Assembly (NCBI GenBank): GCA_043821265.1
Contig: JBDRCY010000026.1
Location: 2,813-66,812, forward strand
Reading direction: 5' to 3'
Length of the DNA: 64,000 nt
Source of the DNA: Chloroflexota bacterium
GTDB lineage: Bacteria > Chloroflexota > Dehalococcoidia > Dehalococcoidales > JBDRCY01
Part shown: one piece after another, positions 4,685 to 62,387 of the stretch
Position numbering within the stretch: the stretch's first letter is position 1
How the letters are laid out: each line of letters opens with the position of its first letter
Notes under the pieces: model-generated
Databases searched by the model: none
The model's input: the letters and a program-made list of their open reading frames with translations, nothing else
Told to the model about the DNA's origin: nothing
Position numbers and translations under genes: made by a program

Positions 4685-4716
4685 ACGCTAGCAGGGAGCC
4701 TGCTCCCTGCTAGCGT
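4685..4716 (-). promoter_or_regulatory. Intercistronic perfect 15-bp inverted repeat (RNA hairpin) between dctP and dctQ
   Basis: ACGCTAGCAGGGAGC-CT-GCTCCCTGCTAGCGT, 36 nt downstream of the dctP stop. On the minus strand it is followed by ...GTGTTTTAGGG. Confidence 0.5.
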
Positions 4717-16611: not shown

Positions 16612-16639
16612 GTGCCCCGATAAATACTTATCGGGGCAC
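16612..16639 (+). terminator. Hairpin downstream of glnA (12-bp perfect stem, 4-nt loop)
   Basis: GTGCCCCGATAA-ATAC-TTATCGGGGCAC. Only two T residues follow, so the U-tract is weak. Confidence 0.4.
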
Positions 16640-31529: not shown

Positions 31530-32390
31530 TTAGTCGCTGTAGAAGGATAAGGCGACCTGCGGCCCGGCGGCGCACGACATCACCGGCGTATAGGCGGTGG
31601 TATAGACCTCCACACAATTCAATTCGGCGGTAATAATTTCCCTCAGCCTATCAGCCTCCTCGGGATTATCCGAATAGTGCACCATGAGATGTAACGGCTT
31701 TTTGATATCCAGGTGCTTCTTGGCCGTGGCCACTAGCCTGAGCAGGCATTTTTGTTTGCCCCGGGCCCGGCCCAGGGCATCGACCATGCCGGTGCCGCTA
31801 ACTATGCCGATGATTGGTTTCACCTGCATCAGGTTGCCGATGAAGCCAGCGACCTTGGGGGCGCGGCCGGTTTTAATCAGGTACTTGAGGGTATCCAGGG
31901 CGGCCACGAATTTCACCCTTGGTATCATGTTATGGGCCACCTCGATGACTTTGGCCACGCTTCTACCTGCCTTGGCGGCGCGGGCGGCTTCTAAGACGAT
32001 GAAACCGAGCGCACCGGCGGCGGTCTTGCTATCGATAATCTCGATTTTAAGACGGGGATTTTTCTCGGTTACTATTTTCTTAGCCTGGACCGCCGACTCG
32101 TGGGTGGCGCTCAGCGCTTTCGGTAGCAGGATGCAAACGATGTTGTTGGTAACCTTGCCCAGTTCGGTAAAGGTATCGGCAAAATCCTGCGGGTTGGCCG
32201 CACTGGTGGAGGGCGGTTCCTTGAGGTCTTTGAATATACTCCAGAATTCGGCGGGGGTGATGTCTATCTGGTCCCGGTACGGTTTGCCATTAATAACGAT
32301 GCCTACCGGTACTACGCGGATACCGTATTCCTCAATTAACTCTGGAGGCAGGCAATTGGTGCTGTCGGTGACAATACCTACTTTTGACAT
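31530..32390 (-). CDS. DegV-family fatty-acid-binding protein
   Basis: 286 aa. VGIVTDSTNCLP, IIDSKTAAGALGFIVLEAA. Confidence 0.88.
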   Translation of the reverse strand: MSKVGIVTDSTNCLPPELIEEYGIRVVPVGIVINGKPYRDQIDITPAEFWSIFKDLKEPPSTSAANPQDFADTFTELGKVTNNIVCILLPKALSATHESAVQAKKIVTEKNPRLKIEIIDSKTAAGALGFIVLEAARAAKAGRSVAKVIEVAHNMIPRVKFVAALDTLKYLIKTGRAPKVAGFIGNLMQVKPIIGIVSGTGMVDALGRARGKQKCLLRLVATAKKHLDIKKPLHLMVHYSDNPEEADRLREIITAELNCVEVYTTAYTPVMSCAAGPQVALSFYSD

Positions 32391-32428
32391 TTGCTTTTCC
32401 CCCCTTCTGTTAGATTCATATTACGCTA

Positions 32429-33283
32429 CTAAGAGTAGAAGGATAGTGCCAGAACCGGCCCGGTATGGGCGGCGATGACCGGGGTGTATTCGGTCATATA
32501 GAGTTCGGCACAATTGTACTTACTGGTGACCAGTTCCTTCAGTTGCTCACCGTCCTCCCGGTTGTCGGTGTAATGCACCATTATATGTAGCGGCTTGGTG
32601 GTATCGGTATAGTTCTGCACCATGTCAACCAGCTTGAGCATGGTTTTTCTCTTGCCCCTGGCCCGTGACGCTGGCTCCACTGAACCGGTCTCGTTGTTAT
32701 TGGTAAGGATTGGTTTCACCTGTAGCAGGTCTCCAATCATGGCTACCTTGGGGGCTCGGCCTCCCTTGATGAGATATTTCAGGGTATCCAGTGCGACGAG
32801 GTACTTTACCTTGGGTATCAGGCTGTTAACCAGCTCAACCACCTCGGCCAGGCTTTTACCCGCCTTGGCGGCACGGGCGGCTTCCAGGACGATAAAGCCC
32901 AGGGCACCGGTGGCGGTTTTGGAGTTGATAACCTCTATATTAAGATTGGGCCGTTCCGCCTGAACCAATTCCTTGGCTTTAATGGCTGAATCATAGGTGC
33001 CGCTTAAGGGCTGGGATACCACGATGCAGGCGATATTATCGGTGGCTTGGCCCAATTCCTTGAAGTAAGCGGCAAAGTCGCCGGGGCTGACGGCGCTGGT
33101 GGTGGGCATTTCCTCCAGGCCTTTGAACATCTTCCAGAATCGGGTGGGGGTGATGTCTACCTGGTCCCGGTAGGGCTTGCCTCCGATGATCAGTACCACC
33201 GAAGCCACGCGTATACCGTATTCGGCGATTAGCTCTGCCGGCAGGCAGTTGGTGGTGTCGGTAACAATACCTACTGGGGACAT
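32429..33283 (-). CDS. DegV-family fatty-acid-binding protein (tandem paralog)
   Basis: MSPVGIVTDTTNCLP start at 33283, preceded by AGGAGG. The longer ORF to 33412 would overlap fabG. Confidence 0.88.
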   Translation of the reverse strand: MSPVGIVTDTTNCLPAELIAEYGIRVASVVLIIGGKPYRDQVDITPTRFWKMFKGLEEMPTTSAVSPGDFAAYFKELGQATDNIACIVVSQPLSGTYDSAIKAKELVQAERPNLNIEVINSKTATGALGFIVLEAARAAKAGKSLAEVVELVNSLIPKVKYLVALDTLKYLIKGGRAPKVAMIGDLLQVKPILTNNNETGSVEPASRARGKRKTMLKLVDMVQNYTDTTKPLHIMVHYTDNREDGEQLKELVTSKYNCAELYMTEYTPVIAAHTGPVLALSFYS

Positions 33284-33308
33284 TTTATCTAAGGCCTCCT
33301 TTACGGGT

Positions 33309-34058
33309 CTATATGACACCGCCGTCAATGCAGATAACCTGTGCCGTAATGTAGCTGGCCCGTTCGCTGGCCAGGAAGGCGGCCAGCTCGGCCACATCCT
33401 CCGGCCGGCCAAAACGCTTTAAGGGGATACGGGAGAGAATGGCCTCCTGGGTCTCCTGGGGTAACCTATCTGTCATCTCGGTAACGATGAACCCGGGGGC
33501 GATGGTATTGGCGGTGATGTTCAGCGAACCCACCTCGCGCGCTACGCTCTTGGTAAAGGCGATGAGTCCGCCCTTGGCTGCGGAGTAGTTCGCCTGCCCC
33601 TGATTTCCCACCAGGCCGGCCAGAGAGGAGATATTGATGATACGACCCCACTGCTCAGCCATCATGGAGCGCAGGGCGAACTTGGTGCAGAGATAAGCAC
33701 CGCGCAGGTTGGTATCGAGTACCTCATCCCAGGCATCGTCGCTCATTCGCGGCAGCAGGTTATCCCTGGTAATACCGGCGTTGTTTACCAGGATATCAAT
33801 CCGGCCCCATTTCGCGGTAATTTCGCTGGTCATGGACCTTACCGCTTTAGCATCGGCCACATTGGCCTTCATCAGCATGGACTCTCCGCCGCCACTCTCA
33901 ATCTTCCGGGCTACCTTGCTGGCCTCGGTATCATTGGCTACGTAGTTGATGGCCACCCTGGCATCGAGGCTGGCCAACTTGATGGCGATGGCCCTGCCCA
34001 GCCCCCGCGATGCTCCCGTTACCAGGGCTACCTTTCCCTCCAGTTCTCTTGAAGCCAT
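33309..34058 (-). CDS. fabG: 3-oxoacyl-ACP reductase
   Basis: 249 aa. ALVTGASRGLGRAIA, NISSLAGLVGNQGQANYSAAKGG. Confidence 0.9.
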   Translation of the reverse strand: MASRELEGKVALVTGASRGLGRAIAIKLASLDARVAINYVANDTEASKVARKIESGGGESMLMKANVADAKAVRSMTSEITAKWGRIDILVNNAGITRDNLLPRMSDDAWDEVLDTNLRGAYLCTKFALRSMMAEQWGRIINISSLAGLVGNQGQANYSAAKGGLIAFTKSVAREVGSLNITANTIAPGFIVTEMTDRLPQETQEAILSRIPLKRFGRPEDVAELAAFLASERASYITAQVICIDGGVI

Positions 34059-38288: not shown

Positions 38289-38313
38289 TTTTGCATAGAC
38301 CATCTAGGTATAT
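38289..38313. promoter_or_regulatory. Degenerate copy of the ATACCTAG-N5-CTAGGTAT palindrome, just downstream of the fab operon promoter
   Basis: TTTTGCATAG-ACCAT-CTAGGTATAT. The right arm is perfect and the left arm matches 6/10. Confidence 0.45.
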
Positions 38314-47441: not shown

Positions 47442-47628
47442 ATAACGAAAAAACCTCCTGGTTACGCTTGCTCGGACTCAAAATTAGCAGTCCTCTAACA
47501 GGACTGCTAATTAATCTTACTACAGTATGGAACCGAAGTCAAGCCCTTTTCCCGGTAGTATCGAGCTTGATATCAGCAGGTCAGTGGCTAGACTGAGAGG
47601 GACTGAGGGTTATTTCATCCCGGGGGAA

Positions 47629-48895: not shown

Positions 48896-49204
48896 TCACC
48901 GGCAGGGAATTAAGCGTACTATGTTCTTCTCTTGAAGCACCTGTGCCAGTGCCGATACCGTTTCGTCGATATCTTTTTCCGTAGTGTAGCGGGACAGCGA
49001 AAAGCGCACTGCGCAGTGGGCCTCCTCCTCGGTCCGCCCCATGGCCATGAGCACATGCGTGGGCTCCGGAGAGCCTGATTTGCAGGCCGACCCCGAAGAG
49101 AGGGAGATGTCGTGCTGGTCCAGCGCTAGCACCAGCGATTCCCCTCGCAGTCCCGGCAGGGTCAAGTTAAGGGTGTTGGGCAGCCGCTTTTGCGGGGTGA
49201 CCAT
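48896..49204 (-). CDS. C-terminal piece of the cysteine desulfurase module (contains the catalytic Cys loop), split from the upstream ORF by a 1-nt frameshift
   Basis: KRLPNTLNLTLPGLRGESLVLALDQHDISLSSGSACKSGSPEPTHVLMAMG is the canonical NifS/IscS C-terminus. Confidence 0.8.
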   Translation of the reverse strand: MVTPQKRLPNTLNLTLPGLRGESLVLALDQHDISLSSGSACKSGSPEPTHVLMAMGRTEEEAHCAVRFSLSRYTTEKDIDETVSALAQVLQEKNIVRLIPCR

Positions 49205-52200
49205 TTAGCCTGGCGTCGGGCACCAGATTCCTGATGCCCGCTTCCAGTTTATCCCGTAGTACTCTTATCTTTTCGGCATCCCGCAGGGTATGTCGGGCCA
49301 GCTCCGCTGCCTTGCCCAGGCCGGCAATGGCGGGGACATTCTCTGTCCCGGCTCGCCGCCCGCCCTCCTGCTGGCCGCCATGGATGAGCGGTTCCAGTTC
49401 TATATCTCTCTTTAGGTAAAGGGCGCCGATACCCTTCGGACTGTGGAATTTGTGGCCGGAAAGACTGAGCATGTCTAGACCTAGCTCCTCCACGTCCACT
49501 CTTATCTTGCCCACGGCCTGAACGGCATCACTGTGGAACAGGACACCTCTTTCGTGGGCTATAGCGGCTAGCTCCTTGACAGGCAGGATAGTGCCCACCT
49601 CGTTATTGGCCATCATAATGGAGACGAGGATGGTATCGGCGGTGATGGTCTGTCTTAGTTTATCGGGCTCAAGCCAGCCGTTATTGTCCACCTCTAGGTA
49701 AGTGATGCGGTAGCCAAGCTTCTCCAGGAAGTGGCCGGTGCTCAGGGTGGCCGGGTGCTCGATGGTGGTGGTAATAATATGCTTGCCCTTTTTCTGCCGG
49801 GTGAAGGCTATACCCTTGAGAGCCAGGTTGCTGGCTTCGGAGCCCCCGCTGGTGAAGATGATTCTCCGGGGCTGGGCGTTAATCAGTTTGGCTACCTGGC
49901 GGCGAGCCGTCTCTATGGCTTCTCTGGCATCTCTGCCCACATCATGGATGCTGGAGGGGTTGCCGCAGGCTGCCTCCAGATGGGGTATCATGACCTCTCG
50001 TACCTTGTCGGCCACCGGGGTGGTGGCGTTGTTATCGAGATAGATTCGTCTCTCGGGCTTCCCGATTGGGGTGGTATGGACAGATGGACTGGCACAGGCC
50101 ATCTGTCGGTTAACGGCAAGGCGGGTCTTGGCGGTGCCCGGCTCGACCTTTGCCACCTCACAGAGCAGGGCTTTATAAACGGGAAAGCCGGAGATAATGT
50201 CGTAGTTATTGATGTCGGTGAGGTCATTGACGTTCCACTCTTGCCACGCCTTGGGGCCCACCGGTGTGCCGCCGCCCATGGTGCATTCGACGGCCCCGTT
50301 TACAATATCGGCGCTAACCCGGGCCCTGAAGGGCACGGCACCACGCGGAGTCCTGACCTCCACCAAATCGCCACTCTTGATTTCCCGTTTCTCGGCATCC
50401 GTAGTGTTTAAGTCAACGGTAGGCTCGGGATAGTCCTTCACCAGCCCTTCGATGCTGTGGTGCTGGGAGCGGAAATCGGTCTGGGGGCGGGCGCCGGAGT
50501 TGAATACCAGCGGGAACTTCTCCGCTACCCTGGGGCTGCCCTGGGGGCTTTCCGATGGTTCGGTGTATTTGGGCAGTGGTTCATAGCCGTATTCTTCCAA
50601 GATGGTGGAATATATCTCAAACTTGCCGGTGGGGGTATCGAAGCCGGGTTGGCCATCACGGCGTAAGCCACCTTTTTGCCATTTCTTGTACTCCAGCATG
50701 GGCGTGGCTATCCTTACCCAGCCGCCCGCTGCTTTCACTTCCTCCAGGGTGTAGCTGGAGCCGTCCAGGGCGAAGCGAATCATCTCCTCTTCGCTAAGTG
50801 GATATAGGTGCCCGTAGCCCAGACGCCGGGCTAGCTCCGTCATGATGAGGTGGTCGTTGCGGGCCTCCCACAGGGGCTCGATGACCTTTTCCCGCAGGCG
50901 GAATATTGGCCCGTAGGTCATATAGGAGTCGTTCTCAAACATGGTGGTGGCCGGCAGTACAATGTCGGCATAGGCGGCGTCGGCGGTGAGTTGTCGGTCG
51001 ATACAGGCTATAAATTCCAGCCCGGCCAGTGTCTGGCGCCAGACTGGTGTCTGCGGCCAGGAGGTAAGCAGTGAGGCGCCGTGTATCAGTAGCGCCCGGA
51101 TGCGATACGGTTCGCCTTTGAGCACTGAGTCCACCAGCCCGCTGGCATGGGACTCGCCGCGATAGTGGCTGTAAAGGGGGAATTTATTGCGGGCTACCGC
51201 CCGGTCTATATCTGGGTTTTCCTGGTTGCCGGAGCGGTTGATGGGGAAATCGCTGCCTAGCATAGACAGGCCGATGCCGCCGGGAACATCGAGCTGGTCG
51301 GCCAGAGCGAACAGGGTAAGCACCGCTCGGATAGCCTGAATGCCGCTGTTGGAATACTCCAGGCCGGTGTACATCAGCAGCGAGGTGCCGGTGGCGTTAG
51401 CGATGCGGTGGGTCAGGTCGCGGATGGTGTCCGCCGGTATCCCGGTGATGGTCTCCGCCACTTCGGGAAGGAAGTGCTGGACATAGGTGGCCAGCTCGCT
51501 AAAACCGTGGCACCAGTTCTCGGCGAAGTCCTCGTCGTAGAGTTCTTCGCTGGCCATTACCCAAATCATGCTCAGGGCGAGGGCGCCGTCGGTGCCGGGC
51601 CGGATGGGGACCCACTGGGCGTTGGTGCGTATGGCCGTTTCGGTGCGGCGGGGGTCGATGACGACAATATCAGCCCCCCTGGCGGCGGCAGCTTCCAGCC
51701 GCTGCATATCCACCGGGGGTGAGTCGGTGGCGGGGTTGGTGCCCCATACCACGACCATCTCGGCGTTCTCTATGTCGGTGAACATGTTAACCTGCATCCG
51801 GCCCATGGTTATGTGTGGGGCAATCATGGCCAGAGATACGTAGCACAGCGCTCCCACTCCCATGGTGTTCGGCGAGCCGAAGGGGAACAGGATATTGGAT
51901 GCCGAGGATACGGTCACCCCTCTGGGCTGGAACATATCGCACAGGGCCAGCTCATTGGCCCCGCGCCCGGTATAGATAGCCACCGCCTCCGGCCCCGGTT
52001 CCTGTTTGATTCTGTTCAGCGCTTCCACAATGGTGTCGTAGGCCGCATCCCAGGTGATGCGTTCAAACTCATAGGAGCCTTTGGGCCCCACTCGCTTCAT
52101 GGGGTATTTGAGCCGGTGCTCGGAGTAGACGATTTCCGCGGCGTGCTGGCCACGCCGGCAGATCTGCCCTATGGGGTGGCTGCTGTCTTGCCTGATGTCC

Positions 52201-52307
52201 ACCAGCCGGCCATTTTCAAGCCCTACCTCCACCCAGCAGCCGGCCGGGCAAATGCCGCAGAGACCCTTCCGCCACGCAAGTTGGCTCTTGGATTTTGACG
52301 TTGCCAT
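49167..52307 (-). CDS. Molybdopterin (bis-MGD) oxidoreductase-family domain fused to a class-V aminotransferase / cysteine desulfurase domain (candidate metallopterin-dependent ergothioneine synthase)
   Basis: 1046 codons. N-terminal Fe-S motif CGICPAGCWVEV...C, then a ~700-aa MopB-like body, then IYLDNNATTP...SGGSEASN...SLSGHKFHSPKG (PLP lysine). The ORF ends prematurely at ...LNGHP. Confidence 0.75.
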   Translation of the reverse strand: MATSKSKSQLAWRKGLCGICPAGCWVEVGLENGRLVDIRQDSSHPIGQICRRGQHAAEIVYSEHRLKYPMKRVGPKGSYEFERITWDAAYDTIVEALNRIKQEPGPEAVAIYTGRGANELALCDMFQPRGVTVSSASNILFPFGSPNTMGVGALCYVSLAMIAPHITMGRMQVNMFTDIENAEMVVVWGTNPATDSPPVDMQRLEAAAARGADIVVIDPRRTETAIRTNAQWVPIRPGTDGALALSMIWVMASEELYDEDFAENWCHGFSELATYVQHFLPEVAETITGIPADTIRDLTHRIANATGTSLLMYTGLEYSNSGIQAIRAVLTLFALADQLDVPGGIGLSMLGSDFPINRSGNQENPDIDRAVARNKFPLYSHYRGESHASGLVDSVLKGEPYRIRALLIHGASLLTSWPQTPVWRQTLAGLEFIACIDRQLTADAAYADIVLPATTMFENDSYMTYGPIFRLREKVIEPLWEARNDHLIMTELARRLGYGHLYPLSEEEMIRFALDGSSYTLEEVKAAGGWVRIATPMLEYKKWQKGGLRRDGQPGFDTPTGKFEIYSTILEEYGYEPLPKYTEPSESPQGSPRVAEKFPLVFNSGARPQTDFRSQHHSIEGLVKDYPEPTVDLNTTDAEKREIKSGDLVEVRTPRGAVPFRARVSADIVNGAVECTMGGGTPVGPKAWQEWNVNDLTDINNYDIISGFPVYKALLCEVAKVEPGTAKTRLAVNRQMACASPSVHTTPIGKPERRIYLDNNATTPVADKVREVMIPHLEAACGNPSSIHDVGRDAREAIETARRQVAKLINAQPRRIIFTSGGSEASNLALKGIAFTRQKKGKHIITTTIEHPATLSTGHFLEKLGYRITYLEVDNNGWLEPDKLRQTITADTILVSIMMANNEVGTILPVKELAAIAHERGVLFHSDAVQAVGKIRVDVEELGLDMLSLSGHKFHSPKGIGALYLKRDIELEPLIHGGQQEGGRRAGTENVPAIAGLGKAAELARHTLRDAEKIRVLRDKLEAGIRNLVPDARLNGHPAKAAAQHP

Positions 52308-52472: not shown

Positions 52473-52502
52473 TTGACAAAGCCGGTTTCAACGTGGTAAA
52501 TA
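52473..52502 (+). promoter_or_regulatory. Sigma-70-like promoter of the third degV gene
   Basis: TTGACA (52473-52478), 18-nt spacer, TAAATA (52497-52502). Confidence 0.45.
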
Positions 52503-52526
52503 TACCTAGACGAACTAGGTATATTT
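52498..52526. promoter_or_regulatory. Perfect 12-5-12 palindrome (candidate repressor operator) overlapping the -10 region and start site of degV
   Basis: AAATATACCTAG-ACGAA-CTAGGTATATTT. The arms are exact reverse complements. Confidence 0.6.
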
Positions 52527-52548
52527 TTATAAGGTAGTAGCTATTGTG

Positions 52549-53403
52549 ATGTCTAAGGTTTGCATTGTAACCGATAGTACCAGTTGCCTGCCGGCGGAGC
52601 TGATCGAGGAATACGGCATACGAGTGGCGCCGGTGGGTTTCGTTATTGATGGCAAGCACTACCGCGACCAGGTAGACATTACCACGGCTGAATTCTGGGA
52701 ATTATTTCCCAATCTGGAGGAACAGCCCAGCACAACTGCCGCCAGTCCCGGTGACTTTGTTAATATCTTCACCGAAATGAGTGAGTCCACCGATAGTATC
52801 GTCTGTATCCTGGTCTCCAAGGTGCTGTCGGCCACCCAGGAATCGGCCTATTTGGCCCGGAGGCTGGTAAAACAGGACCACCCCAACCTCAGAATAGAGA
52901 TTATTGATAGCAAGACAGCGGCCGGGGCGATGGGATTCGTTGTTCTGGAGGCGGCTCGTGCTGCCCATCAGGGTAAGAGCCTGGAAGAGGTTCTTGAAGT
53001 TACTGAGGATATGATTCCCCGGGTAGTCTATTTTGCCGCCCTGGAGACACTGAAGTATCTGGCAAAGATAGGGCGGGCACCCCGGGGTGCCTCCGTCGGC
53101 GAGATGCTCAAGGTAAAGCCTATAATCGGCTTCGTCGATGATACCGGTCTGCTGGATCTGGTCGCCAGGGTGAGAGGGCGGGATAAGGCCCTGGCCAAGC
53201 TGGTCGACCTGATGGAAGACTACATCGAGGATGGCAATCCGGTGCATGTCATGGTGCATTACTCCGAGGATAATAAGGATGTAGAGATGCTAAGGGAGAT
53301 GGTTTCTTCACGTTATAATTGTGTGGAAATGTATGACGGAGAGTTCTCGCCGGTAATGGTCGGTGCTGTCGGTCCCATAGTGGGGCTGTCCTTCTATACA
53401 TAA
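52549..53403 (+). CDS. DegV-family fatty-acid-binding protein (third copy)
   Basis: MSKVCIVTDSTSCLP, IIDSKTAAGAMGFVVLEAA. The ORF track start at 52546 is a GTG one codon upstream. Confidence 0.88.
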   Translation: MSKVCIVTDSTSCLPAELIEEYGIRVAPVGFVIDGKHYRDQVDITTAEFWELFPNLEEQPSTTAASPGDFVNIFTEMSESTDSIVCILVSKVLSATQESAYLARRLVKQDHPNLRIEIIDSKTAAGAMGFVVLEAARAAHQGKSLEEVLEVTEDMIPRVVYFAALETLKYLAKIGRAPRGASVGEMLKVKPIIGFVDDTGLLDLVARVRGRDKALAKLVDLMEDYIEDGNPVHVMVHYSEDNKDVEMLREMVSSRYNCVEMYDGEFSPVMVGAVGPIVGLSFYT

Positions 53404-53449
53404 TAATCTGGCGATTGGCTATAGATAAACTAGACTATGGAGGTTGTTT

Positions 53450-54673
53450 ATGAAAAGGGGACTAATGCGTGTAGGATTACTTATTTTTCTGTCTCTGCTA
53501 TTGTTGCTCACACCCATCGTCTCGGCTTGTGGTGGCGGAGCACCCAAGGGGGCGGAGATACGTATCGGGGTGATGGGTGGGCAGTCAGCTCACGCCGCTT
53601 CCTCGGTAGTTCCTCTGCTTGAAGAGCTGGAGCATATCTTCCGTTACATCAATGAGGTGGAGGGTGGTATCGATGGTGTTAAGGTGGACTGGCGCATTGT
53701 GGATAACAAGGGGACGCCCGATGGTGCCGTAATGGCCTATAAGGAACTGAGGGATACCTTTGACCCGCTGGTTTATCTGTCCGTCGAGGATTACCTCTTG
53801 CTGGGCATTAAAGACATGCTGGCTGAGGATGAGTCGGTCGTATTCACCCTCTCAACAATCAATCCGCAGGGCTTTCTACCACCGGGGCGACTGTTTAGCG
53901 TAGCTATCCCCACTGCCGACGGCCTTGCCGGGTTTGCACGCTGGGTCTTAAGCGACTGGAAGGGCAGCGGCAAGCCCAAAATCGGCGTACTTTATTGGGA
54001 TCTACCGTCCGGCCAGCAGTGGCGGATTGCCGAAGCCTGGATGAGGAATCAGGGGGTGGACTTGGTGCCCACTACCTTCCCTATAACCGCCCTTGACCTA
54101 AAGCCGCAGCTCTTGAGCCTGCGTGATGCCGGGGTGGACTATATCTGGATGCTGGGCCTCGCCCATAATGCGGCGGTAGCCATCAGGGATTTCCGGGGCC
54201 TGGGTCTTGCTGATAAGATAACCTTCTGCTTTAACGAATATACCGAGGCCAATGTAGTGCTGGATATTGTCGGCCCGGCGGCGGAGGGCTTTTACACATA
54301 TCGTTCCGAAAGCCCTTACTCCGATGGGAGCCAGGCGGCCCAGCTCTACAGTGAAATCTGGAAATGGGCTACCGGCGAGGACAAATGGACGGATAACCGC
54401 ATCCTCATCACCTTCAAGGCGGCGCTCGGTGCCGCGGTGGAACAGGCGGTGGCTGATGTCGGCTGGGAGAACCTGGACAGCGTAGCCGTTTATGATGCCT
54501 TAAATAAGCTTACCGAGATTGATACCTGGGGAAATAGCGAGGGCTTTGGCTACGGTCCCACTAAGAGAATCGGCGTTTCCACGGTCAAGCTGGCGCAGTT
54601 CACCAAGGACGGGACGGTGGCTGTGAGCGAGGCGGTAGATTTACCCCGCATCTTTGAGGGCGTAGATAAGTAA
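53450..54673 (+). CDS. ABC transporter substrate-binding lipoprotein (LivJ/Peripla_BP_6 type)
   Basis: ATG at 53450 lies 6 nt after GGAGG. Signal peptide with lipobox IVSAC. About 400-aa type-I periplasmic binding fold. Confidence 0.8.
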   Translation: MKRGLMRVGLLIFLSLLLLLTPIVSACGGGAPKGAEIRIGVMGGQSAHAASSVVPLLEELEHIFRYINEVEGGIDGVKVDWRIVDNKGTPDGAVMAYKELRDTFDPLVYLSVEDYLLLGIKDMLAEDESVVFTLSTINPQGFLPPGRLFSVAIPTADGLAGFARWVLSDWKGSGKPKIGVLYWDLPSGQQWRIAEAWMRNQGVDLVPTTFPITALDLKPQLLSLRDAGVDYIWMLGLAHNAAVAIRDFRGLGLADKITFCFNEYTEANVVLDIVGPAAEGFYTYRSESPYSDGSQAAQLYSEIWKWATGEDKWTDNRILITFKAALGAAVEQAVADVGWENLDSVAVYDALNKLTEIDTWGNSEGFGYGPTKRIGVSTVKLAQFTKDGTVAVSEAVDLPRIFEGVDK

Positions 54674-54692: not shown

Positions 54693-54718
54693 CGGGGGCT
54701 CCTTATTTGGAGCCCCCG
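54693..54718. terminator. Bidirectional terminator hairpin between the convergent binding-protein gene and livF
   Basis: CGGGGGCTCC-TTATTT-GGAGCCCCCG, followed by CTTGCTTTGTT. Confidence 0.55.
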
Positions 54719-54747: not shown

Positions 54748-55518
54748 TTAACCGGCGGAATGGGCATTAGGATAGTTAAAGAAGGCACCGTACCCGTTCA
54801 GGCCGTAGCCTTCCTTTACTTGCGCATGGTCGCTGAATTGATCCGTCTCCCCGTCGGAGGCTACTCTTCCGTTCTGGAGGACATAGCCATAGTCAGCGAT
54901 GGCCAGGGCGGCTACGGCATTCTGCTCGGCAATCAACAGCGAGGTTTTCTCCTCTTCGTTTATTTGCTTGAGAATATCAAATATGCCTTTTATCAGTGTC
55001 GGGGCCAGTCCCAGGGAGGGTTCGTCAAGCAGCATGATTCTGGGTCGGGCCATGAATGCCCGGCCAATTACCAGCATCTTTTGCTCACCCCCGGAGAGAT
55101 ACCCGCTCTTCTGGTGGCGCCGTAACGCCAGCTGGGGGAAATAACCGTAGACTCGGCTTAAGTCTGGTTTGATATTAGGCCTATCTCGCCGGAGATAGGC
55201 TCCCATAATCAGGTTCTCTTCGGTAGTCAGTTGGGGAAATACCGAGCGCTCTTGCAGCACGTGGCAGATGCCCCGTCGGGCTATCTTTTCGGGGTTCAGC
55301 CCGTCTATACGCCTGCCGTCAAGCTCGATAGTGCCTTCGGTGAGCTCGCCGTCTTCAGTCTTGAGTATTCCCGAAATGCTTTTCAGCGTGGTTGATTTCC
55401 CGCTGCCGTTTGAGCCCAGCAGAACAGCGATTTTGCCGTCCTCTACCTTGAGGGATACCTCGCTAAGGGCCAGCACCACGTCGCTGTACACCGCCTTGAT
55501 TTTATGCAGCTTAAGCAT
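54748..55518 (-). CDS. livF: Branched-chain amino acid ABC transporter ATP-binding protein
   Basis: 256 aa. GSNGSGKST, LSGGEQKML, LLDEPSLGLAP. Confidence 0.85.
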   Translation of the reverse strand: MLKLHKIKAVYSDVVLALSEVSLKVEDGKIAVLLGSNGSGKSTTLKSISGILKTEDGELTEGTIELDGRRIDGLNPEKIARRGICHVLQERSVFPQLTTEENLIMGAYLRRDRPNIKPDLSRVYGYFPQLALRRHQKSGYLSGGEQKMLVIGRAFMARPRIMLLDEPSLGLAPTLIKGIFDILKQINEEEKTSLLIAEQNAVAALAIADYGYVLQNGRVASDGETDQFSDHAQVKEGYGLNGYGAFFNYPNAHSAG

Positions 55519-58327: not shown

Positions 58328-58354
58328 CCTATACATAGAGTATCTAGGTATAGG
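58328..58354. promoter_or_regulatory. Near-perfect 11-5-11 copy of the ATACCTAG-N5-CTAGGTAT palindrome upstream of livG
   Basis: CCTATACATAG-AGTAT-CTAGGTATAGG (10/11 complementary). It lies 12 nt downstream of a minus-strand TTGACA(58395-58390)-18-TACCCT promoter-like pair. Confidence 0.5.
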
Positions 58355-58431: not shown

Positions 58432-58461
58432 TTGACAATTGCTACCTAGGTATGGCTTAAT
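58432..58461 (+). promoter_or_regulatory. Promoter-like element of the tubulin-like gene, with TACCTAGGTA in the spacer
   Basis: TTGACA (58432-58437), 18-nt spacer containing CTACCTAGGTATGG, then CTTAAT (58456-58461). Confidence 0.4.
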
Positions 58462-58463
58462 AG

Positions 58464-58488
58464 TTAAGTAATAGTGCGTATTACTTAA
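58464..58488. promoter_or_regulatory. Perfect 10-5-10 AT-rich palindrome immediately upstream of the tubulin-like start codon
   Basis: TTAAGTAATA-GTGCG-TATTACTTAA ends 4 nt before the ATG at 58493. No purine-rich Shine-Dalgarno is present. Confidence 0.55.
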
Positions 58489-58492
58489 AGTA

Positions 58493-59674
58493 ATGAAACT
58501 GATAGTTATTGGCTGTGGACAATGCGGTGGCAGGATTGCCGATGAGTTTGCTCGGTTAAATATACGGGCGCGTGCTGAGCGTGGCATAGAGATTATTACC
58601 GGCGCATACGCCGTAAACACCGACGTAGCTGATTTAAGCGGTCTATCCAATATTAGGCGCGATTATCAACACCGGATCTTAATCGGCAATCAGAAGACCG
58701 GCGGGCATGGCGTCGGTAAGATAAACGAACTTGGCGCCGAGATAGCTATGGATGATGGCGACAAGGTTATTGACGCCATCAGGACCACACCACACTTCAA
58801 TGAGACGGATGCCTTCCTGATTGTCTCCAGTGCGGCGGGCGGTACCGGTTCCGGGGCGATACCGACACTGACCAAGAAAATAAAGGAGCGTTACGTCTTA
58901 AAACCGGTCTATAATCTTATCGTGTTGCCCTTCCTGCATGAGGAGGCGACGGAGGAGAGGACGACCTATAATACGGCCACCTGTATTAAGTCGGCTTACT
59001 TGGCGGCTGATGCCATATTCCTGGTGGATAATCAACGGTTTGTTAAAAAGGACTTTCCCATTAAGGACAACCTGGCTAAAATCAATAATGCCGTGGTGAG
59101 TCCTTTTTACAACCTGCTCTGTGCCGGAGAAGAGAAGAAGGCGCAATATATCGGGGCTAAGATGATCGATGCTGGCGATATAATACAGACCCTGGTCGGC
59201 TGGACGGTAATCGGTTATGGCCGGACGACAACGCCGGGGTTCAAGTTCTCCTTCGGCAAGAAGGGTGATGATTTCAGGGATAAGAGCAGCGAGTCACATC
59301 GGGGAACTAATGCCTTACAGGGAGCGATAAATGACTTATCGCTTAAGTGTGACCCGACTGATGCCAGGAGATGCCTGTATCTCGTCTCCGGGCCACCCAA
59401 GCAAATGAGTATGGACATGCTAAGTAATCTGGCCTCGTTTACCAAAGGCATAGCCCCGGAGTCTATCATAAGGAGCGGTGATTATCCCAGGGGTAAAAAC
59501 GCGATGGGCGTTACCGTAATCCTATCCGAGCTCATCAATGTGAGCAAAGTCATGGACTACTTCGCTAAAACGATTGAATATATCCATGCTGCTAAGCGGA
59601 GATGGGGAACGGTTGACCGCCGGCAAGAGAGTATCCAGGATATCTTCAAGGATATTCCCTCGCTGCTGGGCTAG
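58493..59674 (+). CDS. Tubulin/FtsZ-superfamily GTPase, tubulin/CetZ-like rather than canonical FtsZ
   Basis: 393 aa. T1 loop GCGQCGGRIADEF (compare beta-tubulin GQCGNQIGAKF), T4 signature AAGGTGSG, FLVDNQRF (tubulin-type DN), T7-like KMIDAGDIIQTL. Confidence 0.75.
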   Translation: MKLIVIGCGQCGGRIADEFARLNIRARAERGIEIITGAYAVNTDVADLSGLSNIRRDYQHRILIGNQKTGGHGVGKINELGAEIAMDDGDKVIDAIRTTPHFNETDAFLIVSSAAGGTGSGAIPTLTKKIKERYVLKPVYNLIVLPFLHEEATEERTTYNTATCIKSAYLAADAIFLVDNQRFVKKDFPIKDNLAKINNAVVSPFYNLLCAGEEKKAQYIGAKMIDAGDIIQTLVGWTVIGYGRTTTPGFKFSFGKKGDDFRDKSSESHRGTNALQGAINDLSLKCDPTDARRCLYLVSGPPKQMSMDMLSNLASFTKGIAPESIIRSGDYPRGKNAMGVTVILSELINVSKVMDYFAKTIEYIHAAKRRWGTVDRRQESIQDIFKDIPSLLG

Positions 59675-59723: not shown

Positions 59724-60215
59724 TTAGCTGGTAACCTTGGTAAAGGTGTTCCAGGCCTGGTCCAGGATTCTAGTACGCTCTTGCCAGGCTTCTTCAAGAG
59801 TTTCGTTACGGGTCTTTAGGGCCTGTGCCACCTTCTCTTCGTAAGTCGTCTTGGTTTGTTCTCTGGCCTTATTGAAATCCATCTCGGCCTGTCGTTCAGC
59901 CTCAGCGTGGGTACTCCGGGCTTCCGCTATGGCCTTTTCGCAGCCTTCATTGATTTTCCTTTCCGCTTCCTTGTAGGTGGCCTCGACCTCCTGCTCATTT
60001 TCCCGGTATGCCCGTGCCACGTCTTTTTGGGCATTCATGTAAGCCGTATAGGCTCTCTCAGCCTGGGCTAGAACATTATCTAGCGAACCCTTGGCCTTAG
60101 CCAGTTCGGCAGCCACCGGTTCTTCTGCCGGCTCTTCAGTTGGTGCGGCGGGACTCTGGATTTCCTCTACTGGCTCCGCAGTTTCCTTTTTCCCCTGTAT
60201 CCTAGGCTCCGTCAT
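59724..60215 (-). CDS. Acidic coiled-coil protein, function unknown
   Basis: 163 aa. Pro/Glu-rich N-terminus, then uninterrupted heptad-like Ala/Glu/Lys/Arg helix. No TM helix or signal peptide. Confidence 0.55.
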   Translation of the reverse strand: MTEPRIQGKKETAEPVEEIQSPAAPTEEPAEEPVAAELAKAKGSLDNVLAQAERAYTAYMNAQKDVARAYRENEQEVEATYKEAERKINEGCEKAIAEARSTHAEAERQAEMDFNKAREQTKTTYEEKVAQALKTRNETLEEAWQERTRILDQAWNTFTKVTS

Positions 60216-60297: not shown

Positions 60298-62121
60298 TTA
60301 GTCCGGCTCTTCTTCGTCCTCCTCCGGCGGTCTGTTTTTACGGGCCGCATACATTCTTGTCAGGCTATTCAAGCGGTCCTCGATGGTCTTACTAAAATCG
60401 GCGCTCTCCGAGTCTTCCTCTTTTGTTTTGCTGCTCTCAGTCCTGGTAATCGCTTCTTCGGCTATTCTAACCGATGGCGACTTGGAGCCTGGGGTTGGTT
60501 TATTAGGCTTGGCGCTGGCGGTTATACGCTCCTCGGCAGGTTTTATTTCCGCTTTTGTCGGCCTTGGGGGTGCGCCTGTCACTTCCGCCTCACCGATAAG
60601 CTCCTTAAAGGTTCTTCTTGATGTCTCGATGTCCTCGGTGGCTACTCGGTGTATATTCTCAATCTTACCGGTGGTTTTCTGAGATGCCACCATAGCTGAC
60701 TGAACGGATTCTTCGGCGGCTTTACTGGCTTCTTCGATGCCATTTAGTGCTTTCGTAAGTGCTTCCGCCGAGGCTTCCGAGAACTCCCTGGTGGCTCTTC
60801 GCGACACCTCGGCAGCTTTTCTGGCGATTGATATGGCGGCTTCAGCAGCCTCCTGGGCTGACCTGCTTATGCCCTCGGCCCTGGCTATCGCTTCCTGTGA
60901 AGTCTTGGTTGACATCTCAACAGCTTCTTTGGCGGTAGCTATCGCCAAGTCGGCATATTCCTTGACCGCTTTGGTGGCCGCTTCGGTGGTCTCATGGGCC
61001 GACCGGCCTATTTCCTCGGCCCTGGCTATCGCTTCCTGGGAGGCTTTGGTAGCTGCCTCGGCGGCCTCCTGGGCCGACCGGCCTATTTCCTCGGCCTTGG
61101 CTATCGCTTCATGTGAGGCCCTGGTGGCTATTTCGGCGGCCTCATTGGCTGTACTATCTATCGCCTTGGCCTTGGCCATCATTTCCTGTGAGGCCCTGGT
61201 AGCGGCTTCCACGGCAGCTATGGTGGACTTGCCTATTGCCTCGGCCTCGGCTATCGCTTCTCTAGCGGCTTTTACGGCCGTCTCGGCTGACTCATTGGTA
61301 GTGCCTATTATTTCCTTAGCCCTGGCGGCTGCTTCCTTGATGGCCCTTTTCGAGTCGGCGGCGGTCTCTTTGGCCCATTTGACCGTTTCCTCAGTCTTTA
61401 GTGCTACCTCTTCTTGTGCCTTCCTGGCATCTTCGGTCGCCTGTACCGCATGTTTGCTGCTCGATTCGGCCAGGCTTATGGCCTTTTCGAATGCTTTTTT
61501 GGCGGCCTCCACCGATTCTTGAGAGGACCGGGCTAATCTGTCAGCCGTGCGTATGGCTCCCAGTGATGCCTTTTTCGAGGCCTCGGCCGCATCCTTGGCC
61601 GTCCGGCTTGTTTCCAGGGCTATAGTGGTGGCTTCATGCGATGCTGTTATCGATTCTTCGGCAATATTCCTGGCGGCTAGACCGGCCTCTTGCGCCTTGT
61701 TGATAGCCTCGTCTGATATCCTTATCGCTTCCTCGGCAGCTTCCTTGCCCTCAATGGCTGTTTTCTCGGCCTTACGGACGGCCTCGGTGAACTCGACTAT
61801 TAAGGTATCGGAAGTGGTCTTGGTCGCTTTGATTATGTCCTCGGTATTCCTGATGGCCTCCTCGAGCTTGGCCCTTAATGACTCGCTGGACTCTTTGGCC
61901 CACAGGCTTACTTTGTCGGCCTTGGATACCGCTTCCTGTGAGGTGACGGTGGCTGCCTCCGCGGCCTTAAGGGTGGACCTGCTTATGGAGTCAGCCCTGG
62001 CTATGGCTTCCTGAGCGGCAATTACTGATGCCTCAGCCGCATCTTGAGCAACCTTGCCCAGCTTTTCCGCCCGGGCCACCGCTTTGGCGAATACTCCGCC
62101 GTCTTTCTCTTGTTCGGCCAT
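60298..62121 (-). CDS. Ala/Glu-rich helical repeat protein (about 20 tandem 25-residue units) with a disordered acidic/Pro-rich tail
   Basis: 607 aa. Units such as EAATKASQEAIARAEEIGRSAHETT and EIATRASHEAIAKAEEIGRSAQEAA. This is the only uninterrupted frame across the region. No signal peptide. Confidence 0.7.
   Translation of the reverse strand: MAEQEKDGGVFAKAVARAEKLGKVAQDAAEASVIAAQEAIARADSISRSTLKAAEAATVTSQEAVSKADKVSLWAKESSESLRAKLEEAIRNTEDIIKATKTTSDTLIVEFTEAVRKAEKTAIEGKEAAEEAIRISDEAINKAQEAGLAARNIAEESITASHEATTIALETSRTAKDAAEASKKASLGAIRTADRLARSSQESVEAAKKAFEKAISLAESSSKHAVQATEDARKAQEEVALKTEETVKWAKETAADSKRAIKEAAARAKEIIGTTNESAETAVKAAREAIAEAEAIGKSTIAAVEAATRASQEMMAKAKAIDSTANEAAEIATRASHEAIAKAEEIGRSAQEAAEAATKASQEAIARAEEIGRSAHETTEAATKAVKEYADLAIATAKEAVEMSTKTSQEAIARAEGISRSAQEAAEAAISIARKAAEVSRRATREFSEASAEALTKALNGIEEASKAAEESVQSAMVASQKTTGKIENIHRVATEDIETSRRTFKELIGEAEVTGAPPRPTKAEIKPAEERITASAKPNKPTPGSKSPSVRIAEEAITRTESSKTKEEDSESADFSKTIEDRLNSLTRMYAARKNRPPEEDEEEPD
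60700..62060 (-). repeat. In-frame 75-bp tandem repeats inside the 607-aa gene (approximate limits)
   Basis: The best-conserved neighbours are 60996-61070 and 61071-61145. Their first 40 nt differ at one position. Other units are more diverged. Confidence 0.7.
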
Positions 62122-62387
62122 GTTGCTTAAGGTTTCCCCAAAATCTTACTCGAAGGCTTTGTGGCTAACGGTAAAACGCCCGTCTCCGTCGGCTCATTAG
62201 GATAACATTCTACGGCAAAGTGCTTTATTTTTCAATAGCTATACGGAAATTGCTCCGGTACAGATTAATTTAGAAAGGGCTGAGCATCTTTCAATTTATT
62301 TAAAGCAGGTTATAGTCTAGTTGAAACAGCCTTGAATTGCAATAGGATGTATTAAATTCGCCAAAAGCCGGAAACCAATTATTATGT

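Follow-up and report, generated by a model that had tools for sequence, protein, structure and literature searches.

The cetZ-like gene and its host

A gene for a tubulin-superfamily GTPase is found in a 64,000-nucleotide stretch of DNA from a Chloroflexota bacterium of the order Dehalococcoidales (GenBank assembly GCA_043821265.1, contig JBDRCY010000026.1, positions 2,813 to 66,812). This whole stretch is termed the window, and all coordinates refer to it. The gene, termed cetZ-like, is located at 58493–59674 on the plus strand. It encodes a protein of 393 amino acids with a tubulin/FtsZ GTPase domain and a CetZ-type C-terminal domain, as determined with Pfam, PDB sequence matches, an AlphaFold2 model and Foldseek. 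In the window it is flanked by a divergent liv-type ABC operon and by two genes termed p163 and p607, and the outer flank carries a nitroreductase gene. A perfect palindrome is present just upstream of the start codon. An initial annotation, made from the sequence, pictured the protein as a CetZ-like GTPase that is not a division FtsZ, and the palindrome as a hairpin that controls its translation or as a protein-binding site.

The ATG at 58493 is the sole possible start, because an in-frame TAG is present upstream at 58472–58474 and all homologues begin in register with the N-terminus, MKLIVIGCGQCGG, whose conserved form is MKL(I/L)VIG. The motifs that had been read in the 393-residue open reading frame are all present as described: GQCGG at residues 9–13, AGGTGSG at 115–121, VDNQRF at 178–183 and IDAGD at 225–229. 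The first is part of the T1 loop, GCGQCGG (residues 7–13; 58511–58531, plus strand), and the second is the T4 tubulin signature (58835–58855, plus strand), both placed by translation and homologue alignment. The fourth is the T7 loop (59165–59179, plus strand), placed by alignment to the PDB entry 4b46. Across 44 homologues, residues G7, G9, Q10, C11 and G12 of T1, G116 to G121 of T4, and D226, A227, G228 and D229 of T7 are invariant; in addition, the T1 motif is common to all paralogue groups and DAGD is found in every paralogue. Residue D229 aligns with E218 of CetZ1 in the alignment to 4b46; E218 is reportedly the catalytic acid that is given to the neighbouring subunit. The predicted set of GTP-binding and GTPase motifs (T1 GQCGG, T4 AGGTGSG and T7 DAGD) is complete.

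The nearest homologue, with 95% protein identity, is found in the same gene order on an NCBI contig (L003) of a Chloroflexota metagenome-assembled genome, which is 93.9% identical to the window in nucleotide sequence over 13.5 kb. Further named relatives are from Dehalococcoidia or Dehalococcoidales bacteria. The gene content of the window includes an Rnf complex with ApbE, PlsX/FabF/FabG, GS-GOGAT, a TRAP transporter, a histidine kinase and DegV proteins. As the nearest homologues are named Chloroflexota or Dehalococcoidia and the gene content is bacterial, the host is bacterial and not archaeal, unlike the hosts of the CetZ family as reviews describe it. The family to which the protein belongs is large. 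At least 6,747 proteins were detected at E ≤ 1e-3 among 8,000 candidates scored, and 66 representatives remain at E ≤ 1e-30 after clustering at 50%. Among Dehalococcoidia-type Chloroflexota the CetZ-affiliated branch is widely distributed.

No dcw or min genes are present among the approximately 60 larger open reading frames of the window that were scanned, in keeping with the initial annotation, and no second FtsZ/tubulin paralogue is found in the 64 kb.

Family assignment

The protein matches the Pfam Tubulin/FtsZ GTPase family (PF00091; 3.2e-31, 109.5 bits against a cut-off of 33) and the CetZ C-terminal domain (CetZ_C, PF21011; 2.8e-16, 59.9 bits against a cut-off of 21.6). The FtsZ equivalog TIGR00065 of NCBIfam stays far below its cut-off (58.9 against 295.2 bits), and FtsZ_C (PF12327) has no match in the protein even at E ≤ 1. 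Tubulin_2 (PF13809) is likewise below its cut-off (17 against 27 bits) and covers just 30 residues around the signature motif; the Pfam scan of the protein gave no match to Tubulin_C.

Searches of PDB sequences point the same way. The best matches are CetZ1 of Haloferax volcanii (4b46; 6.3e-50), CetZ2 (4b45; 1.5e-26) and a Methanosaeta CetZ (3zid; 8.6e-12). FtsZ chains follow at 5e-11 to 1e-6, with Aquifex FtsZ at 4.7e-11 and others at ∼1e-7 at best, and tubulin chains are found at ∼1e-5, with 24–28 bits. An AlphaFold2 model was built on the 44 homologues (mean predicted local distance difference test, pLDDT, 83.5; predicted template modelling score, pTM, 0.86). When it was compared with the PDB by Foldseek, ranks 1 to 4 were all CetZ chains (4b46, 4b45, 3zid), with template modelling scores normalised to the target of 0.89, 0.87 and 0.77. 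By BLAST, the window protein is 35% identical to CetZ1 (166–183 bits), while CetZ1 and CetZ2 are 48% identical to each other (288 bits). An E. coli FtsZ reference sequence, verified against PDB entries, gave at most 42 bits with each of the window protein, CetZ1 and CetZ2.

A neighbour-joining tree of 82 sequences, with E. coli FtsZ as the root, displays two clades, one with CetZ1, CetZ2 and the archaeal-type representatives and the other with the window protein, both far from FtsZ. The initial annotation had called for a phylogeny and a structure prediction; the window clade lies far from FtsZ in the tree (bootstrap 46/100), and CetZ chains are the nearest folds. With CetZ_C above its cut-off, TIGR00065 below it, and CetZ1 and CetZ2 foremost by sequence and fold, the view of a CetZ-like, non-FtsZ GTPase is supported. 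The window protein is thus shown to be CetZ-affiliated and to belong to a distinct clade. The boundary of the canonical CetZ clade is given by Thermococcales CetZ (PMC9856176), and the tree contains no labelled Thermococcales sequence.

A CetZ-like group with CetZ_C homology in Chloroflexota-Dehalococcoidia is noted in passing in a passage of Santana-Molina et al. (2023; PMC9871819), where the Chloroflexota sequences are termed 'CetZ-like' and paraphyletic. Relatives carry the names 'tubulin/FtsZ family protein' or 'tubulin-like protein CetZ' at NCBI and JGI. The gene joins a bacterial CetZ-like group that has already been noted in the literature and is barely studied.

Chloroflexota have another tubulin-like protein (P0193), which is more distant and, close to where the archaeal CetZ clade begins, pairs with a protein from Bathyarchaeia (P0201). 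The Bathyarchaeia protein ends in KDIPPLL. This grouping is consistent with more than one exchange between archaea and Chloroflexota.

The C-terminal tail

Beyond helix H351–370 the protein has a poorly conserved linker of ∼20 residues and then the terminus FKDIPSLL. The conserved extreme C-terminal peptide KDIPSLL comprises residues 386–392 (59648–59668, plus strand; homologue alignments). Residues D387, P389, S390, L391 and L392 are invariant in the 44 homologues; P389 and L391 are conserved at 90% or more in an alignment that extends down to 32% identity, and the tail terminus is kept in every paralogue group. The statement that the protein has no FtsZ-type C-terminal linker or peptide was therefore wrong. 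The E. coli-type FtsZ tail, LDIPAFLR, is nearly the same in sequence and has the same linker-peptide architecture. Several archaeal-type CetZ representatives also terminate in a comparable motif, (D/E)(I/L)x(P/S)L(F/L). In FtsZ, it is on the C-terminal peptide that FtsA, ZipA and SepF dock. By analogy, a docking role may be inferred for the KDIPSLL peptide.

Partner genes and paralogue pairs

Gene neighbourhoods were surveyed in 84 related loci by tblastn and clustering of open reading frames. Two conserved neighbours emerged. The p163 gene (59724–60215, minus strand) is convergent with the cetZ-like gene and encodes a small, acidic, all-helical protein, ∼160–180 amino acids in relatives, in which a disordered acidic N-terminus precedes a conserved helical body of 11-residue periodicity. 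Its orthologues adjoin cetZ-like genes in 48 of the 84 loci, with pairwise E-values of 9e-24 to 1e-40. The p607 gene (60298–62121, minus strand) encodes an Ala/Glu-rich repeat protein, ∼600–750 amino acids in relatives, with about twenty 25-residue repeats (a period of 75 nt in the DNA), a linker that is disordered and, at the C-terminus, a conserved helix (IExRLxSLxRMYA); orthologues are found in 44 loci. Among the loci without these neighbours, many are short fragments of contigs. A single-sequence AlphaFold2 model of p607 displays three very long helices (pLDDT 69.8). Upstream of p607 is a promoter-like site, TTGAAA-N17-TAGAAT (62207–62235, minus strand), which is placed by its consensus match alone (10 of 12 positions).

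Searches of Pfam, PDB sequences and Foldseek gave no family for either protein, and just coiled-coil noise or designed helical repeats were returned. Word-indexed homologue searches were uninformative, with two matches for p163 and one spurious match for p607.

A recurrent arrangement in relatives is (eno)-gap > cetZ-like > p163 < p607 < cetZ-like > dnaX > ybaB > recR, and variants have tandem cetZ-like genes. This arrangement, with its two cetZ-like genes between (eno)-gap and dnaX > ybaB > recR, is possibly the ancestral one. In the subgroup to which the window protein belongs (n = 27), the convergent p163/p607 pair is found downstream wherever sequence is available, with differing outer flanks. 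That the three-gene unit stays together while the outer neighbourhood changes is good evidence that cetZ-like, p163 and p607 form a functional module.

Two cetZ-like paralogues within 10 kb of each other, either in tandem or flanking p163/p607, are present in 29 of the 84 loci (e.g. L002, L007, L012, L017 and L020). The pairs are mostly 58–75% identical; in four loci (L053, L057, L060 and L067) identity is 43–45%, and here the upstream copy, whose identity to the window protein is 41–42%, has (E/K)LPTLD and not DIPSLL as its terminus. Taken together, the cetZ-like gene, its helical-repeat partners and its frequent paralogue suggest a cytoskeletal module. A heterodimer with a catalytically dead paralogue, in the style of alpha/beta-tubulin, was considered and is unsupported, as T1, T4, T7 and the tail are retained in every group of paralogues. 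The literature passages that were retrieved contain no description of the p163/p607 linkage, the flanking paralogue pairs, the KDIPSLL tail or the conserved promoter described below.

Promoter and leader

A candidate promoter is present at 58432–58463 on the plus strand and consists of TTGACA (58432–58437) and a degenerate −10 element, CTTAATAG (58456–58463). It is assigned by positional homology with orthologues, where a strong promoter, aTTGACAt-N17/18-TAAAAT, matches at 9 or more of 12 positions in 80 of 101 cetZ-like genes and ends 25–35 nt, most often 27–29 nt, before the start codon. Expression from a sigma-70-type promoter that is conserved in position thus appears probable. Transcription would start at ∼58468–58471, i.e., within the left arm of the palindrome, and the full hairpin would not be part of the mRNA since the predicted start falls inside that arm.

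The last 20 nt before the cetZ-like start contain no Shine-Dalgarno-like 4-mer, so that the missing Shine-Dalgarno site had been read correctly. A ribosome-binding site, GAGGTG, is conserved 5–7 nt before the start in 91 of the 101 cetZ-like genes. It has been lost in both the window genome and L003, which have an A/U-rich leader instead. That most other genes in the window have strong GGAGG sites proved to be an overstatement: when 54 window open reading frames were evaluated at the longest-frame start, a Shine-Dalgarno core of at least 5 nt was found in 15, a 4-mer in 18 and none in 21. The missing site is unusual with respect to the gene's own orthologues and not with respect to the window. 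Translation in the two genomes presumably relies on an unstructured leader, which in the window would be ∼22–25 nt long.

The 4-mer test detects no canonical Shine-Dalgarno site at the annotated start of any of the three module genes. Positions −11 to −6 before the p163 start read GGGGGG, and this stretch could base-pair with the anti-Shine-Dalgarno sequence via G-U wobble.

The palindrome

The palindrome (58464–58488, plus strand) consists of the arms TTAAGTAATA (58464–58473) and TATTACTTAA (58479–58488) around the loop GTGCG. As had been described, this 10-5-10 palindrome is perfect and stops 4 nt short of the ATG. In the window, 11 places carry a perfect palindrome whose arms have at least 10 nt and whose loop has at most 10 nt, against 0.59 ± 0.72 in dinucleotide shuffles. 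The palindrome is no compositional accident, yet it is one of many such elements in the window.

It is also lineage-specific. The initial annotation had held that absence of the palindrome from orthologous upstream regions would speak against its proposal; the palindrome is missing from all 84 related loci examined, and the exact pattern has no match there. When the final 55 nt upstream of ∼80 orthologues were inspected, the arms of the best inverted repeat measured 3–6 nt, and none resembles the window palindrome. In L003 the homologous segment is TTACTTAGTA-GTGTA-TATTATTTAA, with arms that are complementary at 7 of 10 positions, and no compensatory changes distinguish its arms from those of the window. 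The palindrome segment is a divergence hot-spot and no conserved element, because palindrome plus spacer have 7 differences in 29 nt, compared with 10 in 152 nt of the intergenic sequence just upstream (P ∼0.002) and 6.1% overall. The clustered differences include ACTT vs AAGT, a 4-nt inversion. The palindrome may represent a recent, lineage-specific state, possibly formed by a clustered template-switch-type mutation, as such an event in a quasi-palindrome would give changes of this kind.

If transcribed in full, the hairpin would fold at −10.5 kcal/mol (z = −1.7). In an RNA that starts at 58469 the hairpin is lost and the folding energy is −7.2 kcal/mol (z = −0.46). The window has no second copy of the palindrome site, and Rfam and tRNA scans of the window gave no matches. 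As for a cis-regulatory RNA, the ∼80 orthologous leaders display no inverted repeat longer than 6 nt and there is no Rfam match. The proposed control by a hairpin or bound protein is thus not supported: the palindrome is missing from the 84 loci and degenerate in L003, and the predicted transcription start lies inside its left arm.

Two matches of the exact palindrome pattern to viral contigs were rejected, as these are longer AT-rich palindromes in unrelated contexts.

Other features of the window

A different palindromic motif, TATACNTAG-N5-CTAGGTATA, is unrelated to the cetZ-like palindrome and recurs in the window. In the form TATAC(N)TAG-N5-CTAGGTATA it is found at 38290–38312, 52501–52523 and 58330–58352 with 0, 0 and 2 mismatches, respectively, i.e., three times where 0.15 are expected. 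These sites are upstream of a fatty-acid/phospholipid operon (MaoC-type dehydratases, PlsX, FabG, FabF and others), a degV gene, and the liv-type ABC operon divergent to the cetZ-like gene. The third site (58330–58352) is unchanged in L003. From its placement, the motif looks like the operator of a lipid-metabolism regulon. Three DegV-family (fatty-acid-binding) paralogues are encoded within 22 kb, at 31530–33412 (minus strand) and 52546–53403 (plus strand), and two of them adjoin fab/pls genes.

A perfect GC-rich hairpin, CGGGGGCTCC-TTATTT-GGAGCCCCCG, is present at 54693–54718 between the convergent genes 53444–54673 (plus strand) and 54748–55518 (minus strand) and probably serves as a bidirectional terminator. 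Other perfect palindromes, whose arms measure 12–15 nt, are found at 4685–4716, 16612–16639 and 47482–47512; the one at 16612–16639 is intergenic, ∼115 nt upstream of the apbE-rnf gene row. An open reading frame of 1,046 amino acids at 49167–52307 (minus strand) displays a fusion of a molybdopterin oxidoreductase (Fe4S4, Molybdopterin and Molydop_binding domains) with a class-V aminotransferase/cysteine-desulfurase-like domain. The same fusion is found in L003.

Proposed role and rival explanations

The best overall explanation, and one we hold to be moderately probable, is that the gene encodes a bacterial CetZ-affiliated GTPase that forms a module with p163 and p607 and has a role in cell shape or the envelope over one in a division ring. 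The cetZ-like protein would form GTP-dependent protofilaments, as CetZ and FtsZ do, with the T7 acid D229 of one subunit activating GTP hydrolysis in the next. The KDIPSLL peptide may dock the filament to a partner or a membrane adaptor, and the rod-like p163 and p607 might serve as filament-associated scaffold or bundling proteins. Most likely, by analogy with archaeal CetZ, the module would organise cell shape or the envelope and not a division ring.

A shape or envelope role is favoured because of what the literature reports on the lineage and on protein abundance and morphology in strain BTF08 of D. mccartyi. In Dehalococcoidales and SAR202, whose wall is S-layer-like, peptidoglycan and the dcw cluster are missing but mraZ-mraW-ftsA-ftsZ is retained (PMC10608941, PMC11994032). 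According to a passage of PMC8163811, D. mccartyi BTF08 expresses FtsZ (btf_0595), a separate 'FtsZ/Tubulin GTPase' (btf_0551) and a nearby hypothetical protein, and all three are described there as higher in disc-shaped pure-culture cells than in barrel-shaped co-culture cells.

Several observations weigh against the role proposed here. Bootstrap values in the neighbour-joining tree are weak (46/100 for the window clade and 14/100 for the archaeal CetZ clade), and because of this the tree leaves undecided whether the window clade is sister to the archaeal one or nested. The −10 element in the window is poor and the promoter scan calls no promoter (it fails the A2/T6 rule), so that the transcription start is placed by orthologues alone. 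Six loci with at least 3 kb on both sides have neither p163 nor p607. In most relatives the cetZ-like gene is located between gap (GAPDH) and dnaX-ybaB-recR. Finally, a role in division or the cell cycle would likewise be compatible with a tail peptide that resembles that of FtsZ.

The last point leads to the main rival, an accessory role in division, which we regard as unlikely though deserving of attention. The protein would be a second division-ring component, similar to archaeal FtsZ2, that assists canonical FtsZ and binds FtsA or SepF through KDIPSLL. The resemblance of the tail to the DIPAFL of FtsZ speaks for it, as do the proximity of the gene to dnaX-ybaB-recR in many relatives and the abundance of the D. 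mccartyi 'FtsZ/Tubulin GTPase', which in the passage of PMC8163811 changes together with that of FtsZ. However, sequence, C-terminal domain and fold are all of the CetZ type, neither the window nor the relatives' loci have an ftsA, sepF or dcw neighbour, and the similar tails of archaeal CetZ representatives indicate that the tail is not division-specific. CetZs are also said to be dispensable for division in Haloferax.

It is still less probable that the palindrome is a working, strain-specific control element, either the operator of a dimeric repressor placed over the transcription start or, should transcription begin farther upstream, a 5′ untranslated hairpin that limits ribosome access in the stead of the lost Shine-Dalgarno site. 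Its perfect 10-5-10 symmetry is situated exactly between the −10 region and the ATG of a gene from which the family Shine-Dalgarno site is missing, the full hairpin folds at the energy given above, and palindromes of this kind are ∼19 times commoner in the window than in shuffles, which indicates that many are functional. Against this stand its absence from the related loci, the decay of the arms in L003 with no compensatory change in a segment that diverges ∼4 times faster than its surroundings, and a hairpin energy that is unremarkable and is lost when the RNA begins at the predicted +1; moreover, there is no second copy in the window, no adjacent regulator gene and no Rfam match. A DNA-segregation tubulin, similar to TubZ or PhuZ, of a mobile element lodged in the chromosome is most improbable. 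In its favour, the gene for this tubulin-superfamily GTPase is not part of a dcw cluster and has genes for small helical proteins close by. On the other hand, TubZ and PhuZ structures are absent from the PDB sequence matches, the gene is chromosomal with a stable gap ... dnaX synteny across many Dehalococcoidia, no phage or plasmid genes surround it, and the palindrome matches in viral contigs are unrelated AT-rich sequences.

Wider implications

The shape or envelope role can be extended, tentatively and with much less assurance than the role itself. Dehalococcoidia may possess a tubulin-type cytoskeleton of their own, consisting of one or two CetZ-like GTPases with p163 and p607, that stems from an ancient archaeal exchange and shapes peptidoglycan-free, S-layered, disc-like cells beside an FtsZ/FtsA divisome. 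If true, this would represent archaeal-style morphogenesis in a bacterium alongside a conventional divisome. Reviews still describe CetZ as archaea-specific cell-shape regulators. A large, conserved bacterial group shows that the branch extends across two domains of life, and the group is found in exactly those bacteria in which, as in archaea, peptidoglycan has been lost and an S-layer is relied on. The locus also offers a testable handle on shape in wall-less bacteria, with p163 and p607 as candidate partners and KDIPSLL as a candidate docking peptide; D. mccartyi is a cultured relative in which, according to the passage cited above, an FtsZ/tubulin GTPase varies with cell morphology. The significance of the locus is carried by the bacterial CetZ-like module, and the palindrome adds nothing to it.

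Comparison with known systems

Archaeal CetZ proteins (CetZ1, CetZ2 and 3zid) are the closest known system. They share with the window protein the GTPase domain and CetZ_C, provide its best sequence and fold matches, and likewise have GQxGG in T1, a DN motif within T5/T6, an acid in T7 where CetZ1 has E218, and an acidic tail that ends in a short hydrophobic motif. The window protein differs in its bacterial host, in its lower identity to CetZ1 (35%, compared with 48% between CetZ1 and CetZ2) and in its own clade. Its gene neighbourhood consists of p163/p607 in the window and of gap and dnaX in relatives.

Among bacterial proteins, the Chloroflexota-Dehalococcoidia CetZ-like group noted in a passage of PMC9871819 is of the same phylum and class and has the same CetZ_C homology. 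The candidate orthologue btf_0551 of D. mccartyi BTF08 is likewise of the same phylum and class, and as described in a passage of PMC8163811 it coexists with canonical FtsZ in a cultured representative. Canonical FtsZ has in common with the window protein the superfamily fold, a GGTGSG-type signature, a DxxD T7 loop, and a linker with a terminal DIPx(F/L)L. In contrast to FtsZ, the window protein fails the equivalog, has no FtsZ_C, displays GQCGG and not GGGGxN in T1, and is not in a dcw/ftsA context. It differs from tubulin, BtubAB and Asgard tubulins in having no Tubulin_C, and tubulin chains score only 24–28 bits.

Several filament-forming GTPases have dedicated accessory proteins, such as BtubC for BtubA/B and TubR/TubY for TubZ, and FtsZ is bound by the coiled-coil proteins EzrA and ZapA/B. 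The module resembles these systems in that a GTPase, often as two paralogues, is encoded beside helical proteins that may modulate the filament. It differs in that p163 and p607 have no detectable sequence or fold relationship to BtubC, TubR/TubY, EzrA or ZapA/B. It differs also from an alpha/beta-type division of labour, as both cetZ-like paralogues keep the catalytic T7 residues.

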